A program made the translations under genes and the position numbers. Below, piece by piece: positions 24,843 to 40,606 of a DNA stretch of 40,606 nt; position 1 is the stretch's first letter; each line of letters opens with the position of its first letter. The DNA is from Escherichia phage T7, in sequence record LR745708; one strand, 5' to 3'. Below the pieces are notes generated by a model. The model saw only the letters and a program-made list of their open reading frames with translations. It was not told the DNA's origin and searched no databases.

Positions 24843-27227
24843 ATGGCACTCATTAGCCAATCAATCAAGAACTTGAGGGGTGGTATCAGCCAACAGCCTG
24901 ACATCCTTCGTTATCCAGACCAAGGGTCACGCCAAGTTAACGGTTGGTCTTCGGAGACCGAGGGCCTCCAAAAGCGTCCACCTCTTGTTTTCTTAAATAC
25001 ACTTGGAGACAACGGTGCGTTAGGTCAAGCTCCGTACATCCACCTGATTAACCGAGATGAGCACGAACAGTATTACGCTGTGTTCACTGGTAGCGGAATC
25101 CGAGTGTTCGACCTTTCTGGTAACGAGAAGCAAGTTAGGTATCCTAACGGTTCCAACTACATCAAGACCGCTAATCCACGTAACGACCTGCGAATGGTTA
25201 CTGTAGCAGACTATACGTTCATCGTTAACCGTAACGTTGTTGCACAGAAGAACACAAAGTCTGTCAACTTACCGAATTACAACCCTAATCAAGACGGATT
25301 GATTAACGTTCGTGGTGGTCAGTATGGTAGGGAACTAATTGTACACATTAACGGTAAAGACGTTGCGAAGTATAAGATACCAGATGGTAGTCAACCTGAA
25401 CACGTAAACAATACGGATGCCCAATGGTTAGCTGAAGAGTTAGCCAAGCAGATGCGCACTAACTTGTCTGATTGGACTGTAAATGTAGGGCAAGGGTTCA
25501 TCCATGTGACCGCACCTAGTGGTCAACAGATTGACTCCTTCACGACTAAAGATGGCTACGCAGACCAGTTGATTAACCCTGTGACCCACTACGCTCAGTC
25601 GTTCTCTAAGCTGCCACCTAATGCTCCTAACGGCTACATGGTGAAAATCGTAGGGGACGCCTCTAAGTCTGCCGACCAGTATTACGTTCGGTATGACGCT
25701 GAGCGGAAAGTTTGGACTGAGACTTTAGGTTGGAACACTGAGGACCAAGTTCTATGGGAAACCATGCCACACGCTCTTGTGCGAGCCGCTGACGGTAATT
25801 TCGACTTCAAGTGGCTTGAGTGGTCTCCTAAGTCTTGTGGTGACGTTGACACCAACCCTTGGCCTTCTTTTGTTGGTTCAAGTATTAACGATGTGTTCTT
25901 CTTCCGTAACCGCTTAGGATTCCTTAGTGGGGAGAACATCATATTGAGTCGTACAGCCAAATACTTCAACTTCTACCCTGCGTCCATTGCGAACCTTAGT
26001 GATGACGACCCTATAGACGTAGCTGTGAGTACCAACCGAATAGCAATCCTTAAGTACGCCGTTCCGTTCTCAGAAGAGTTACTCATCTGGTCCGATGAAG
26101 CACAATTCGTCCTGACTGCCTCGGGTACTCTCACATCTAAGTCGGTTGAGTTGAACCTAACGACCCAGTTTGACGTACAGGACCGAGCGAGACCTTTTGG
26201 GATTGGGCGTAATGTCTACTTTGCTAGTCCGAGGTCCAGCTTCACGTCCATCCACAGGTACTACGCTGTGCAGGATGTCAGTTCCGTTAAGAATGCTGAG
26301 GACATTACATCACACGTTCCTAACTACATCCCTAATGGTGTGTTCAGTATTTGCGGAAGTGGTACGGAAAACTTCTGTTCGGTACTATCTCACGGGGACC
26401 CTAGTAAAATCTTCATGTACAAATTCCTGTACCTGAACGAAGAGTTAAGGCAACAGTCGTGGTCTCATTGGGACTTTGGGGAAAACGTACAGGTTCTAGC
26501 TTGTCAGAGTATCAGCTCAGATATGTATGTGATTCTTCGCAATGAGTTCAATACGTTCCTAGCTAGAATCTCTTTCACTAAGAACGCCATTGACTTACAG
26601 GGAGAACCCTATCGTGCCTTTATGGACATGAAGATTCGATACACGATTCCTAGTGGAACATACAACGATGACACATTCACTACCTCTATTCATATTCCAA
26701 CAATTTATGGTGCAAACTTCGGGAGGGGCAAAATCACTGTATTGGAGCCTGATGGTAAGATAACCGTGTTTGAGCAACCTACGGCTGGGTGGAATAGCGA
26801 CCCTTGGCTGAGACTCAGCGGTAACTTGGAGGGACGCATGGTGTACATTGGGTTCAACATTAACTTCGTATATGAGTTCTCTAAGTTCCTCATCAAGCAG
26901 ACTGCCGACGACGGGTCTACCTCCACGGAAGACATTGGGCGCTTACAGTTACGCCGAGCGTGGGTTAACTACGAGAACTCTGGTACGTTTGACATTTATG
27001 TTGAGAACCAATCGTCTAACTGGAAGTACACAATGGCTGGTGCCCGATTAGGCTCTAACACTCTGAGGGCTGGGAGACTGAACTTAGGGACCGGACAATA
27101 TCGATTCCCTGTGGTTGGTAACGCCAAGTTCAACACTGTATACATCTTGTCAGATGAGACTACCCCTCTGAACATCATTGGGTGTGGCTGGGAAGGTAAC
27201 TACTTACGGAGAAGTTCCGGTATTTAA
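24843..27227 (+). CDS. 12: Gene 12 tail tubular protein B
   Basis: 794-aa ORF MALISQSIKNLRGGISQQPD... Confidence 0.95.
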   Translation: MALISQSIKNLRGGISQQPDILRYPDQGSRQVNGWSSETEGLQKRPPLVFLNTLGDNGALGQAPYIHLINRDEHEQYYAVFTGSGIRVFDLSGNEKQVRYPNGSNYIKTANPRNDLRMVTVADYTFIVNRNVVAQKNTKSVNLPNYNPNQDGLINVRGGQYGRELIVHINGKDVAKYKIPDGSQPEHVNNTDAQWLAEELAKQMRTNLSDWTVNVGQGFIHVTAPSGQQIDSFTTKDGYADQLINPVTHYAQSFSKLPPNAPNGYMVKIVGDASKSADQYYVRYDAERKVWTETLGWNTEDQVLWETMPHALVRAADGNFDFKWLEWSPKSCGDVDTNPWPSFVGSSINDVFFFRNRLGFLSGENIILSRTAKYFNFYPASIANLSDDDPIDVAVSTNRIAILKYAVPFSEELLIWSDEAQFVLTASGTLTSKSVELNLTTQFDVQDRARPFGIGRNVYFASPRSSFTSIHRYYAVQDVSSVKNAEDITSHVPNYIPNGVFSICGSGTENFCSVLSHGDPSKIFMYKFLYLNEELRQQSWSHWDFGENVQVLACQSISSDMYVILRNEFNTFLARISFTKNAIDLQGEPYRAFMDMKIRYTIPSGTYNDDTFTTSIHIPTIYGANFGRGKITVLEPDGKITVFEQPTAGWNSDPWLRLSGNLEGRMVYIGFNINFVYEFSKFLIKQTADDGSTSTEDIGRLQLRRAWVNYENSGTFDIYVENQSSNWKYTMAGARLGSNTLRAGRLNLGTGQYRFPVVGNAKFNTVYILSDETTPLNIIGCGWEGNYLRRSSGI

Positions 27228-33500: not shown

Positions 33501-34552
33501 TAGGGACCTTGAAGTATTCAACACAGGAACTGGCTGCTCGCTCTCCGTGGACTAAGCTACTGAACGGAACCACTAACTACCTTCTGGATGCTGCGCGTCA
33601 AGGTATGCTTGGGGATGTTATTAGTGCCACCCTAACAGGTAAGACTACCCGCTGGGAGAAAGAAGGCTTCCTTCGTGGTGCCTCCGTAACTCCTGAGCAG
33701 ATGGCTGGCATCAAGTCTCTCATCAAGGAACATATGGTACGCGGTGAGGACGGGAAGTTTACCGTTAAGGACAAGCAAGCGTTCTCTATGGACCCACGGG
33801 CTATGGACTTATGGAGACTGGCTGACAAGGTAGCTGATGAGGCAATGCTGCGTCCACATAAGGTGTCCTTACAGGATTCCCATGCGTTCGGAGCACTAGG
33901 TAAGATGGTTATGCAGTTTAAGTCTTTCACTATCAAGTCCCTTAACTCTAAGTTCCTGCGAACCTTCTATGATGGATACAAGAACAACCGAGCGATTGAC
34001 GCTGCGCTGAGCATCATCACCTCTATGGGTCTCGCTGGTGGTTTCTATGCTATGGCTGCACACGTCAAAGCATACGCTCTGCCTAAGGAGAAACGTAAGG
34101 AGTACTTGGAGCGTGCACTGGACCCAACCATGATTGCCCACGCTGCGTTATCTCGTAGTTCTCAATTGGGTGCTCCTTTGGCTATGGTTGACCTAGTTGG
34201 TGGTGTTTTAGGGTTCGAGTCCTCCAAGATGGCTCGCTCTACGATTCTACCTAAGGACACCGTGAAGGAACGTGACCCAAACAAACCGTACACCTCTAGA
34301 GAGGTAATGGGCGCTATGGGTTCAAACCTTCTGGAACAGATGCCTTCGGCTGGCTTTGTGGCTAACGTAGGGGCTACCTTAATGAATGCTGCTGGCGTGG
34401 TCAACTCACCTAATAAAGCAACCGAGCAGGACTTCATGACTGGTCTTATGAACTCCACAAAAGAGTTAGTACCGAACGACCCATTGACTCAACAGCTTGT
34501 GTTGAAGATTTATGAGGCGAACGGTGTTAACTTGAGGGAGCGTAGGAAATAA
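30596..34552 (+). CDS. 16: Gene 16 internal virion protein D (N-terminal lytic transglycosylase domain)
   Basis: 1318-aa ORF; N-terminus has an SLT-like motif (...VAWTESRF...GPLGMMQF...). Confidence 0.95.
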   Translation: MDKYDKNVPSDYDGLFQKAADANGVSYDLLRKVAWTESRFVPTAKSKTGPLGMMQFTKATAKALGLRVTDGPDDDRLNPELAINAAAKQLAGLVGKFDGDELKAALAYNQGEGRLGNPQLEAYSKGDFASISEEGRNYMRNLLDVAKSPMAGQLETFGGITPKGKGIPAEVGLAGIGHKQKVTQELPESTSFDVKGIEQEATAKPFAKDFWETHGETLDEYNSRSTFFGFKNAAEAELSNSVAGMAFRAGRLDNGFDVFKDTITPTRWNSHIWTPEELEKIRTEVKNPAYINVVTGGSPENLDDLIKLANENFENDSRAAEAGLGAKLSAGIIGAGVDPLSYVPMVGVTGKGFKLINKALVVGAESAALNVASEGLRTSVAGGDADYAGAALGGFVFGAGMSAISDAVAAGLKRSKPEAEFDNEFIGPMMRLEARETARNANSADLSRMNTENMKFEGEHNGVPYEDLPTERGAVVLHDGSVLSASNPINPKTLKEFSEVDPEKAARGIKLAGFTEIGLKTLGSDDADIRRVAIDLVRSPTGMQSGASGKFGATASDIHERLHGTDQRTYNDLYKAMSDAMKDPEFSTGGAKMSREETRYTIYRRAALAIERPELQKALTPSERIVMDIIKRHFDTKRELMENPAIFGNTKAVSIFPESRHKGTYVPHVYDRHAKALMIQRYGAEGLQEGIARSWMNSYVSRPEVKARVDEMLKELHGVKEVTPEMVEKYAMDKAYGISHSDQFTNSSIIEENIEGLVGIENNSFLEARNLFDSDLSITMPDGQQFSVNDLRDFDMFRIMPAYDRRVNGDIAIMGSTGKTTKELKDEILALKAKAEGDGKKTGEVHALMDTVKILTGRARRNQDTVWETSLRAINDLGFFAKNAYMGAQNITEIAGMIVTGNVRALGHGIPILRDTLYKSKPVSAKELKELHASLFGKEVDQLIRPKRADIVQRLREATDTGPAVANIVGTLKYSTQELAARSPWTKLLNGTTNYLLDAARQGMLGDVISATLTGKTTRWEKEGFLRGASVTPEQMAGIKSLIKEHMVRGEDGKFTVKDKQAFSMDPRAMDLWRLADKVADEAMLRPHKVSLQDSHAFGALGKMVMQFKSFTIKSLNSKFLRTFYDGYKNNRAIDAALSIITSMGLAGGFYAMAAHVKAYALPKEKRKEYLERALDPTMIAHAALSRSSQLGAPLAMVDLVGGVLGFESSKMARSTILPKDTVKERDPNKPYTSREVMGAMGSNLLEQMPSAGFVANVGATLMNAAGVVNSPNKATEQDFMTGLMNSTKELVPNDPLTQQLVLKIYEANGVNLRERRK

Positions 34553-34572
34553 TACGACTCACTATAGGGAGA
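34550..34572 (+). promoter_or_regulatory. T7 promoter phi17
   Basis: taatacgactcactatagggaga overlapping the gene 16 stop. Confidence 0.9.
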
Positions 34573-34624
34573 GGCGAAATAATCTTCTCCCTGTAGTCTC
34601 TTAGATTTACTTTAAGGAGGTCAA

Positions 34625-36682
34625 ATGGCTAACGTAATTAAAACCGTTTTGACTTACCAGTTAGATGGCTCCAATCGTGATTTTAATATCCCGTTTGAGT
34701 ATCTAGCCCGTAAGTTCGTAGTGGTAACTCTTATTGGTGTAGACCGAAAGGTCCTTACGATTAATACAGACTATCGCTTTGCTACACGTACTACTATCTC
34801 TCTGACAAAGGCTTGGGGTCCAGCCGATGGCTACACGACCATCGAGTTACGTCGAGTAACCTCCACTACCGACCGATTGGTTGACTTTACGGATGGTTCA
34901 ATCCTCCGCGCGTATGACCTTAACGTCGCTCAGATTCAAACGATGCACGTAGCGGAAGAGGCCCGTGACCTCACTACGGATACTATCGGTGTCAATAACG
35001 ATGGTCACTTGGATGCTCGTGGTCGTCGAATTGTGAACCTAGCGAACGCCGTGGATGACCGCGATGCTGTTCCGTTTGGTCAACTAAAGACCATGAACCA
35101 GAACTCATGGCAAGCACGTAATGAAGCCTTACAGTTCCGTAATGAGGCTGAGACTTTCAGAAACCAAGCGGAGGGCTTTAAGAACGAGTCCAGTACCAAC
35201 GCTACGAACACAAAGCAGTGGCGCGATGAGACCAAGGGTTTCCGAGACGAAGCCAAGCGGTTCAAGAATACGGCTGGTCAATACGCTACATCTGCTGGGA
35301 ACTCTGCTTCCGCTGCGCATCAATCTGAGGTAAACGCTGAGAACTCTGCCACAGCATCCGCTAACTCTGCTCATTTGGCAGAACAGCAAGCAGACCGTGC
35401 GGAACGTGAGGCAGACAAGCTGGAAAATTACAATGGATTGGCTGGTGCAATTGATAAGGTAGATGGAACCAATGTGTACTGGAAAGGAAATATTCACGCT
35501 AACGGGCGCCTTTACATGACCACAAACGGTTTTGACTGTGGCCAGTATCAACAGTTCTTTGGTGGTGTCACTAATCGTTACTCTGTCATGGAGTGGGGAG
35601 ATGAGAACGGATGGCTGATGTATGTTCAACGTAGAGAGTGGACAACAGCGATAGGCGGTAACATCCAGTTAGTAGTAAACGGACAGATCATCACCCAAGG
35701 TGGAGCCATGACCGGTCAGCTAAAATTGCAGAATGGGCATGTTCTTCAATTAGAGTCCGCATCCGACAAGGCGCACTATATTCTATCTAAAGATGGTAAC
35801 AGGAATAACTGGTACATTGGTAGAGGGTCAGATAACAACAATGACTGTACCTTCCACTCCTATGTACATGGTACGACCTTAACACTCAAGCAGGACTATG
35901 CAGTAGTTAACAAACACTTCCACGTAGGTCAGGCCGTTGTGGCCACTGATGGTAATATTCAAGGTACTAAGTGGGGAGGTAAATGGCTGGATGCTTACCT
36001 ACGTGACAGCTTCGTTGCGAAGAACGAATACAGCCTGTGGGACATCAAGTTTCGCCCGGCTGCGCTCGACCCGCGCGGCATGACGCTGGTTGCCGGCGCG
36101 TTTTGGGCAGACATCTATCTGCTAGGCGTCAACCACCTGACCGATGGCACCAGCAAATACAACGTGACAATTGCAGATGGTAGTGCATCACCTAAGAAAT
36201 CTACCAAGTTCGGTGGAGACGGCAGCGCGGCCTACAGTGACGGAGCTTGGTACAACTTCGCTGAGGTCATGACTCATCACGGTAAGCGCCTGCCTAACTA
36301 CAACGAATTCCAGGCGCTGGCTTTCGGCACGACCGAGGCTACGTCCAGCGGCGGCACCGACGTGCCCACCACCGGCGTGAACGGCACGGGCGCAACGAGT
36401 GCGTGGAACATCTTCACGTCCAAGTGGGGCGTTGTGCAGGCGTCCGGTTGCTTGTGGACGTGGGGTAACGAGTTCGGCGGCGTGAATGGCGCATCCGAAT
36501 ACACGGCCAACACTGGCGGCAGAGGATCGGTGTACGCCCAGCCCGCTGCTGCGCTATTCGGCGGCGCCTGGAACGGCACGTCGCTCTCGGGTTCTCGCGC
36601 TGCGCTCTGGTACAGCGGGCCGTCGTTCTCGTTCGCGTTCTTCGGGGCGCGCGGCGTCTGTGACCACCTGATTCTTGAGTAG
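34625..36682 (+). CDS. 17: Chimeric tail-fibre protein: T7 gp17 residues 1-466 fused to a heterologous ~219-aa C-terminal receptor-binding domain (Mtd-like C-type-lectin fold with DGR variable region)
   Basis: 685-aa ORF against 553 aa for native gp17 as I recall. Translation is T7 gp17 up to ...GGKWLDAYLRDSFVAK (codon 466, nt 36020-36022), then diverges into GC-rich sequence NEYSLWDIKFRPAALDPRGMTLVAGAFWADIYLLG...GARGVCDHLILE. Confidence 0.9.
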   Translation: MANVIKTVLTYQLDGSNRDFNIPFEYLARKFVVVTLIGVDRKVLTINTDYRFATRTTISLTKAWGPADGYTTIELRRVTSTTDRLVDFTDGSILRAYDLNVAQIQTMHVAEEARDLTTDTIGVNNDGHLDARGRRIVNLANAVDDRDAVPFGQLKTMNQNSWQARNEALQFRNEAETFRNQAEGFKNESSTNATNTKQWRDETKGFRDEAKRFKNTAGQYATSAGNSASAAHQSEVNAENSATASANSAHLAEQQADRAEREADKLENYNGLAGAIDKVDGTNVYWKGNIHANGRLYMTTNGFDCGQYQQFFGGVTNRYSVMEWGDENGWLMYVQRREWTTAIGGNIQLVVNGQIITQGGAMTGQLKLQNGHVLQLESASDKAHYILSKDGNRNNWYIGRGSDNNNDCTFHSYVHGTTLTLKQDYAVVNKHFHVGQAVVATDGNIQGTKWGGKWLDAYLRDSFVAKNEYSLWDIKFRPAALDPRGMTLVAGAFWADIYLLGVNHLTDGTSKYNVTIADGSASPKKSTKFGGDGSAAYSDGAWYNFAEVMTHHGKRLPNYNEFQALAFGTTEATSSGGTDVPTTGVNGTGATSAWNIFTSKWGVVQASGCLWTWGNEFGGVNGASEYTANTGGRGSVYAQPAAALFGGAWNGTSLSGSRAALWYSGPSFSFAFFGARGVCDHLILE
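36023..36682 (+). other. Heterologous graft within gene 17 (GC-rich; Mtd-like domain)
   Basis: Abrupt rise in G+C and change of codon usage relative to flanking T7 sequence; the encoded C-terminus ...AALFGGAWNGTSLSGSRAALWYSGPSFSFAFFGARGVCDHLILE resembles, from memory, the BPP-1 Mtd variable-region end. Confidence 0.65.
36544..36680 (+). other. Putative DGR variable region (VR) with IMH-like 3' end
   Basis: ~135-bp stretch that is strongly adenine-poor, with many NNC codons (gcc, aac, ggc, ctc, tac, agc, ttc x4), ending in a GC-only run (ggggcgcgcggcg) and tctgtgaccacctgattcttgag. Confidence 0.6.
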
Positions 36683-36701
36683 CGGGGCCGAAAGGCCCCG
36701 C
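36682..36701 (+). promoter_or_regulatory. GC-rich hairpin with GAAA loop straddling the gene 17 stop (DGR target-recognition hairpin/cruciform-like)
   Basis: gcggggcc-GAAA-ggccccgc: a perfect 8-bp stem with a 4-nt GAAA loop, directly readable. Confidence 0.7.
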
Positions 36702-36723
36702 CAAGGCAACCGTACTCGAACCA

Positions 36724-36760
36724 CTAGCCCGCTCTTATCGGGCGGCTAGGGGTTTTTTGT
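36724..36760 (+). terminator. Putative terminator-like element (imperfect hairpin + G4T6)
   Basis: ctagcccgctcttatcgggcggctag forms an imperfect stem, followed by gggttttttg, which mimics the tail of Tphi (gaggggttttttg). Confidence 0.4.
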
Positions 36761-36784
36761 GATTTACTTTAAGGAGGTCAAATG
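36761..36784 (+). promoter_or_regulatory. Duplicated gene 17 ribosome-binding site driving trxA
   Basis: gatttactttaaggaggtcaaATG at 36761-36784 is identical to 34604-34627, the native gene 17 RBS and start. Confidence 0.9.
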
Positions 36785-37111
36785 AGCGATAAAATCATTC
36801 ACCTGACCGATGACTCTTTTGATACCGACGTGCTGAAAGCTGATGGTGCAATTCTGGTTGATTTCTGGGCAGAGTGGTGCGGCCCTTGCAAAATGATCGC
36901 TCCAATCCTGGACGAAATTGCGGACGAATATCAGGGTAAGCTGACTGTGGCCAAACTGAACATTGACCAGAACCCTGGCACCGCACCGAAATACGGTATC
37001 CGTGGCATCCCAACTCTGCTGCTGTTCAAAAACGGTGAAGTGGCAGCAACCAAAGTAGGCGCTCTGTCTAAAGGCCAACTGAAAGAGTTCCTGGACGCCA
37101 ACCTGGCTTAA
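36782..37111 (+). CDS. trxA: Thioredoxin 1 (E. coli TrxA, identical protein), inserted into the phage genome
   Basis: 109-aa product [109 protein letters not shown] with the CGPC active site; not a T7 gene. Confidence 0.97.
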
Positions 37112-37172
37112 TGATTGGTAAATCACAAGGAAAGACGTGTAGTCCACGGATGGACTCTCAAGGAGGTACAAG

Positions 37173-37376
37173 GTGCTATCATTAGACTTTAACAACGAAT
37201 TGATTAAGGCTGCTCCAATTGTTGGGACGGGTGTAGCAGATGTTAGTGCTCGACTGTTCTTTGGGTTAAGCCTTAACGAATGGTTCTACGTTGCTGCTAT
37301 CGCCTACACAGTGGTTCAGATTGGTGCCAAGGTAGTCGATAAGATGATTGACTGGAAGAAAGCCAATAAGGAGTGA
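37173..37376 (+). CDS. 17.5: Gene 17.5 holin
   Basis: GTG at 37173 after AGGAGG; 67 aa with a hydrophobic core, MLSLDFNNELIKAAPIVGTGVADVSARLFFGL... Confidence 0.85.
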   Translation: MLSLDFNNELIKAAPIVGTGVADVSARLFFGLSLNEWFYVAAIAYTVVQIGAKVVDKMIDWKKANKE

Positions 37377-40040: not shown

Positions 40041-40063
40041 TAATACGACTCACTATAGGGAGA
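40041..40063 (+). promoter_or_regulatory. T7 promoter phiOR
   Basis: taatacgactcactatagggaga. Confidence 0.9.
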
Positions 40064-40439: not shown

Positions 40440-40606
40440 AGAGTCAAGTCCTAAGGTATACCCATAAAGAGCCTCTAATGGTCTATCCTAAGGTCTATAC
40501 CTAAAGATAGGCCATCCTATCAGTGTCACCTAAAGAGGGTCTTAGAGAGGGCCTATGGAGTTCCTATAGGGTCCTTTAAAATATACCATAAAAATCTGAG
40601 TGACTA
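40440..40606. repeat. Right-end short CCTAAAG-like repeat region, ending immediately before the right terminal repeat
   Basis: cctaaggt..., acctaaagataggcc, cacctaaagaggg repeats; window ends ...aaatctgagtgacta, the sequence I recall directly preceding the terminal repeat. Confidence 0.6.

Follow-up and report, generated by a model that had tools for sequence, protein, structure and literature searches.

A synthetic, synonymously recoded trxA gene as a positive-selection marker behind a chimeric tail-fiber gene in bacteriophage T7

The DNA polymerase of bacteriophage T7, gp5, requires thioredoxin as its processivity factor. Several papers from other groups have built selections for T7 around trxA, using the same protein and the same logic, namely that T7 depends on host thioredoxin. 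In the closest described system, that of Grigonyte et al. 2020 (Viruses 12:193; PMC7077284; project PRJEB35760), T7 gave no progeny on BW25113 with trxA deleted, its efficiency of plating falling by approximately 10^10-fold, and recombinants made up 100% of the 10-30 plaques screened for each construct. One mutant of that study, phAG_3, derives from donor plasmid pAG_25; its design joins gp17 residues 1-466 to Mtd from residue 163 (Table S4, PMC7077284), and 30 of 30 plaques were recombinant when it was selected on a trxA-deleted host carrying pAG_30 (PMC7077284). Natural phage thioredoxins, such as those of Burkholderia, Acinetobacter and Streptomyces phages, likewise place a thioredoxin-fold gene on a phage genome, but they share less than 60% protein identity with the TrxA described here and belong to their own phage lineages.

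The DNA analyzed here, which we refer to as the window, is a T7 genome of 40,606 nucleotides (LR745708) that carries a trxA open reading frame (ORF) in its late region. With a probability of about 0.97, we conclude that this ORF is a chemically synthesized, recoded trxA that was recombined into T7 behind an engineered tail-fiber gene as a positive-selection marker, and that the window is phAG_3. The marker belongs to a published construct, follows a standard marker strategy and is already known; an earlier reading of the window from its letters alone (the sequence-only reading) had recognized phage-borne trxA as a known positive-selection marker for recombinant T7, and Grigonyte et al. 2020 bear this out.

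Anatomy and provenance of the insertion

The window corresponds to LR745710, the laboratory wild type of 39,778 bp, with a net gain of 828 bp in a block where a fusion of gp17(1-466) to Mtd(163-381) of Bordetella phage BPP-1 is followed by a synthetic T7 terminator, the gene 17 ribosome-binding site (RBS) in a second copy, and trxA. The features that bear on this block are as follows:

14354-16468, plus strand: gene 5, T7 DNA polymerase; coordinates from the LR745710 annotation, unchanged from the laboratory wild type
34550-34572, plus strand: promoter phi17, T7 class III, found by consensus scan with 0 mismatches; the nearest T7 promoter upstream of trxA
34625-36682, plus strand: chimeric tail-fiber gene, a 685-aa ORF; the edit that trxA served to select
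34625-36022, plus strand: T7 gp17 residues 1-466 of the chimera
36023-36679, plus strand: BPP-1 Mtd residues 163-381 of the chimera, followed by TAG; residue 381 is the end of Mtd
36544-36677, plus strand: variable region VR1 of BPP-1 mtd, the target of retroelement mutagenesis; identical to VR1 of AY029185
36682-36712, plus strand: BPP-1 sequence downstream of mtd, a GC-rich hairpin and 11 further nt
36713-36760, plus strand: synthetic T7 RNA polymerase terminator of 48 nt between chimeric gene 17 and trxA, with C>A at 36723
36761-36781, plus strand: GATTTACTTTAAGGAGGTCAA, the RBS region for trxA; it duplicates the native gene 17 leader, Shine-Dalgarno sequence included
36782-37111, plus strand: synthetic, synonymously recoded trxA, the selection marker; an ATG-to-TAA ORF of 109 codons (109 aa plus TAA)
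37112-37114, plus strand: second stop, TGA, at the position of the wild-type T7 gene 17 TAA stop

By comparison of translations, the product of the ORF is identical over 109 of 109 residues to the annotated E. coli TrxA (WP_001280776.1), and it is equally identical to residues 1-109 of thioredoxin chain 6n7w_I, which establishes the assignment to E. coli thioredoxin 1 proposed by the sequence-only reading. Its structure matches also include the thioredoxin chain of 1t7p and 1skr, and we take all three entries to be T7 DNA polymerase or replisome complexes. The redox-active motif WCGPC is present in the translation. At the nucleotide level, by contrast, native E. coli trxA encodes the same protein with only 86% of its nucleotides in common with the window copy: 46 of the 330 positions differ, in 45 of 109 codons, and every one of the 46 differences is synonymous. 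As had been suspected from the letters, most of the differences fall at wobble positions (third codon positions account for 43 of the 46), and one AGT>TCT (Ser) and one TTG>CTG (Leu) exchange contain the remaining three. The accompanying expectation of less than complete nucleotide identity to the E. coli gene held throughout the complete E. coli genomes, in which trxA was found in 5,426 of 5,426 and its identity to the window copy was always 85-86% (blastn). Gene 17 (34625-36682) precedes the insert and holin gene 17.5 (37173-37376) follows it, which is the late-region position given by the sequence-only reading. The flanks of the insert consist of synthetic and T7 DNA rather than the chromosomal surroundings of trxA, which lies between rhlB and rhoL.

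An antisense ORF of 143 aa at 36764-37195 overlaps the marker and was dismissed, as all T7 promoters found are on the plus strand and the sole sigma-70-like minus-strand site of the region is on the downstream side of this ORF, at 35571.

The match between the window and the published design can be followed directly along the DNA. The "HR1-trxA-HR2 g-block" printed in Figure S7 (PMC7077284) aligns to 36764-37205 with 0 substitutions and three single-base dropouts, which we take to be losses in the conversion of PDF to text since they would break the reading frame; the supplementary sequences were machine-read, so that identity to the ordered DNA holds only to within single-base dropouts. Two joints of the window, gp17/mtd and terminator/RBS/trxA, are reproduced by the Gibson primers for pAG_25, and the chimera junction reads ...DSFVAK/NEYSLWDI..., where NEYSLWDI begins at Mtd residue 163. 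To the left, positions 1-36022 match LR745710 at every base but two; to the right, native T7 sequence (the HR2 homology arm) resumes at 37114, one base after a mismatch at 37113, and agrees with LR745710 as far as the last nucleotide. The two exceptions on the left, which are the only differences outside the engineered block, are an A>G at 24877 (K12R in gp12) and a G>A at 34976 (A118T in gp17). For phAG_3, Table S6 (PMC7077284) lists a gp12 K-to-R A>G single-nucleotide variant (SNV) at 24876, and this gene 12 variant is present in the window at 24877. Junctions, primers and one SNV therefore carry the assignment to phAG_3: the gp17/Mtd junction, the terminator-RBS-trxA joint, the g-block trxA, the right homology arm and the gp12 variant all match, and no design difference between phAG_3 and the window was found.

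Three bases of the window are, or may be, missing from Table S6, namely 34976 (gp17 A118T), the silent C>T at 36400 and possibly the C>A at 36723. The G>A at 34976 separates the window from both LR745710 and LR745707; at 36400, in a Ser codon of mtd, the printed g-block, LR745707 and BPP-1 all have C where the window has T.

The identical 330-nt trxA occurs in three genomes annotated as engineered T7 (LR745706, LR745707 and LR745709), where it occupies the same position relative to gene 17.5 and is followed by T7 sequence identical to the window for at least 1,789 nt. These genomes differ from the window in what precedes the marker. LR745707, a gp17-Mtd chimera with trxA, is without 8 Mtd codons at the junction and without the 48-nt terminator; LR745709, a gp17-Yep-phi chimera with trxA, has another tail-fiber donor and another RBS before trxA, the third and different one of the set; and LR745706 has no gene 17, so that phi17 and the native gene 17 leader immediately precede its trxA. 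The junctions at 2300-2420 of LR745707 (Mtd from KFRP..., no terminator) fit the primers of pAG_23/phAG_1 and do not fit the design of phAG_4 (Mtd from residue 170, with terminator), which is the one that PMC7077284 states was sequenced. This discrepancy may come from a mislabeling on the part of either the paper or the record.

The terminal repeat of T7 is 160 bp long. In the window, no second copy of the first 40 nt occurs at the right end (1-60 and 40547-40606 compared), and the laboratory wild-type assembly measures 39,778 bp against 39,937 for T7 record V01146; the window and the laboratory wild-type assemblies seem to hold one copy of the terminal repeat only.

Recoding of trxA and natural alternatives

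Grigonyte et al. 2020 (PMC7077284) give neither a rationale nor a tool for the recoding, and the word "codon" occurs 0 times in their main text. Codon optimization, a point on which the sequence-only reading was silent, can be rejected as the reason: judged by a codon table compiled from 39 genes in the neighborhood of E. coli trxA, the recoding exchanged 22 codons for commoner synonyms and 23 for rarer ones. Codon quality is unchanged, with a geometric mean codon fraction of 0.394 in the native and 0.401 in the recoded gene. Removal of restriction sites was rejected as well, given that sites for EcoRI, XbaI, SpeI, PstI, NotI, BsaI and BbsI are absent from the native and recoded genes alike. 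Frequency-weighted random resampling of synonyms, on the other hand, is expected to change 55.6 codons (sd 4.6), which is close to the 45 observed.

The mtd fragment of the same construct provides a point of comparison. Over 36023-36682 it differs from BPP-1 (AY029185) at 25 positions, all of them G/C to A/T and all synonymous; 24 of these are at codon position 3 and the remaining one is in the same codon as one of them. Judged from this pattern, the fragment was apparently recoded silently to a lower GC content. Given the near-random direction of the changes in trxA together with the 25 silent GC-to-AT changes in mtd, we lean toward the view that the recoding of trxA is a by-product, that is, the default output of a DNA-design or vendor codon tool.

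We favor this explanation over a deliberate removal of homology to chromosomal trxA, whereby the marker would neither recombine with nor be supplied by the host copy. Such an intention would fit the unimproved codon quality and the spread of the changes along the gene, which leaves longest identical runs of only 32 and 26 nt relative to native trxA, but we consider it doubtful: the paper offers no rationale of the kind. The 45 changed codons lie close to the resampling figure, as is the behavior of common vendor tools, the silent alteration of mtd suggests routine synthesis adjustment, and the selection host is a Keio trxA deletion. In the Keio design, almost no trxA sequence remains in the deletion to recombine with.

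Where the sequence-only reading had pointed to a synthetic gene or a non-K-12 source, the synthetic half is supported by the g-block, and the natural, non-K-12 half fails on the alleles compared. Salmonella TrxA is 100% identical in protein to the window TrxA, and a natural ortholog therefore needed direct testing. The nucleotide identities of natural trxA alleles were as follows:

Salmonella trxA (two alleles): 92-93% to E. coli trxA, 84% to the window copy
Enterobacter trxA: 90% to E. coli trxA, 85% to the window copy
Buttiauxella trxA: 89% to E. coli trxA, 83% to the window copy

The natural alleles are thus close to one another, and the window trxA is about equally distant from each of them. 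Such equal distance is a signature of design and not of lineage. Consistent with this, no plasmid in PLSDB carries the window version of the gene, an exact 42-mer from it has no match in 185,579 species genomes (one genome per species) or in IMG/VR, and an exact 45-mer has none in the JGI metagenomes. Among records in phage collections, those at least 99% identical to TrxA are only engineered T7 genomes and three Salmonella-derived records. That a natural ortholog was cloned from another enterobacterium with an identical protein, for example Salmonella, is consequently very improbable: although an allele with only synonymous differences could in principle be natural, given the identical Salmonella protein, the Salmonella, Enterobacter and Buttiauxella alleles are all closer to E. 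coli trxA than to the window copy, the exact 42- and 45-mers are absent from the species-genome, viral and metagenome collections, and Grigonyte et al. 2020 give trxA as a g-block.

Capture of chromosomal trxA from an E. coli host by illegitimate or homologous recombination, which could appeal to the identity of the window protein to host TrxA and to the fact that phages sometimes carry thioredoxin genes (272 phage-collection records hold homologs, at less than 60% identity), has a negligible probability and is already refuted by the ceiling of about 86% DNA identity among 5,426 E. coli genomes, to which are added the synonymous nature of all 46 differences, flanks in which the synthetic terminator, the second copy of the gene 17 RBS and the extra TGA stop stand in place of rhlB or rhoL sequence, and the equality of the cassette with the printed synthetic fragment (the Grigonyte et al. 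2020 g-block).

With a synthetic origin of the gene, the window is to be treated as a laboratory construct, and its trxA, Bordetella mtd segment and synthetic terminator are not to be read as natural gene transfer. Divergence that is exclusively synonymous and equidistant from the natural alleles, in combination with standard synthetic parts, makes a clean signature of engineering, and screens of sequence databases for constructs could make use of a signature of this type. The trxA marker itself holds no new biology and its value is mainly one of bookkeeping; the C>A at 36723 of the terminator is the only loose end with any novelty.

Selection and expression of the marker

The window contains the features of a selection cassette: a complete trxA with an RBS, placed beside the edited locus and bounded by T7 homology arms (design in Tables S2 to S4). 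With respect to the phenotype, for which we rely on the published plating results, wild-type T7 would make no plaques on a trxA-deleted host because gp5 needs thioredoxin. A recombinant that acquires the cassette from the donor plasmid would make its own thioredoxin and grow, and every plaque should then be a recombinant.

By consensus scan, no T7 promoter lies between phi17 (34550-34572) and the next one downstream, at 40041. The trxA gene lacks its own promoter and would be translated from the gene 17 RBS copy; we infer that the transcripts carrying it are late ones made by T7 RNA polymerase, with starts at phi17 or at promoters located further upstream. Such transcripts would have to read through the synthetic T7 terminator before reaching trxA. 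This terminator, directly upstream of the marker, was overlooked by the sequence-only reading, so that the expression with the late genes which it proposed would depend on read-through. Genes 17.5 to 19 are also behind the synthetic terminator. Genes 18 and 19 of T7 are essential for DNA packaging. Since the phage was propagated with genes 17.5 to 19 in this position, we infer that the terminator must be leaky.

The terminator was designed in through the pAG_25 primers. Its sequence is given as a T7 terminator in PMC9256728 and PMC10632401, one of which attributes it to Temme et al., and the window version is identical to the published one except for a single base, the C>A at 36723, which lies at the base of the stem. 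The predicted hairpin has a folding energy of -20.8 kcal/mol in the window against -27.9 kcal/mol in the published version, such that the substitution removes approximately 7 kcal/mol of predicted stem stability. The identification came from a full-text search of the sequence string, as BLAST of the 48 nt against phage and plasmid collections returned no match. Within 36682-36760, a consensus terminator scan called neither of the two hairpins, and folding showed both.

The printed g-block is ambiguous at exactly base 36723. The C>A could be a design or synthesis variant that was already in the ordered DNA. A more speculative possibility, to which we give limited credence, is that the change was absent from the ordered DNA and arose as a mutation that was enriched during selection, which would make it an unreported adaptation of the phage to its own cassette. 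Enrichment is conceivable because a terminator of full strength would starve trxA and the essential genes 17.5 to 19 of transcript.

Downstream of the terminator, the ribosome-binding region of trxA forms part of a perfect direct repeat of 24 nt, in which 34604-34627 equals 36761-36784 (gene 17 leader plus ATG), and which brackets the whole of chimeric gene 17. If the two copies recombined, the chimera would be lost and the phage would be left with the arrangement of LR745706, where trxA stands in place of gene 17. Table S2 (PMC7077284) names the trxA RBS as BioBrick B0034; we reject this assignment, as the sequence is the native T7 gene 17 leader in the window, and the same leader also precedes trxA in the printed g-block and in the primers. 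At the other end of the marker, the g-block reads TAATGATTGG at the second stop.

The chimeric tail fiber and its orphan Mtd segment

The sequence-only reading also missed that the gene upstream of the marker is a gp17-Mtd chimera that is non-infective unless wild-type gp17 is provided in trans. In the study of Grigonyte et al. 2020, all of the Mtd chimeras were non-infective unless pAG_30 supplied wild-type gp17 in trans, and the Yep-phi chimera alone infected E. coli unaided (PMC7077284). Given this requirement of the Mtd chimera for gp17 in trans, a lack of plaques on a trxA-deleted host without pAG_30 would be uninformative about trxA.

Two features of a BPP-1-type retroelement target are found in the mtd segment, namely VR with its target-recognition sequence at the 3' end and a GC-rich hairpin downstream. 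The hairpin is formed by GCGGGGCC-GAAA-GGCCCCGC at 36682-36701, with GAAA as the loop of the predicted fold. Homology to BPP-1 stops at 36712, and in BPP-1 avd (bbp7) starts immediately after that point. No copy of the template repeat (TR) was found in the window; among the TR 20-mers tested, only the first matches, and it does so at VR itself, being common to TR and VR. A working retroelement can be rejected, as TR, avd and reverse transcriptase are absent and the window consists of wild-type T7 plus 828 bp only. On the evidence of these sequence features, the mtd segment is an orphan retroelement target, and the tip of the tail fiber would be diversifiable only if TR, avd and reverse transcriptase were supplied in trans.
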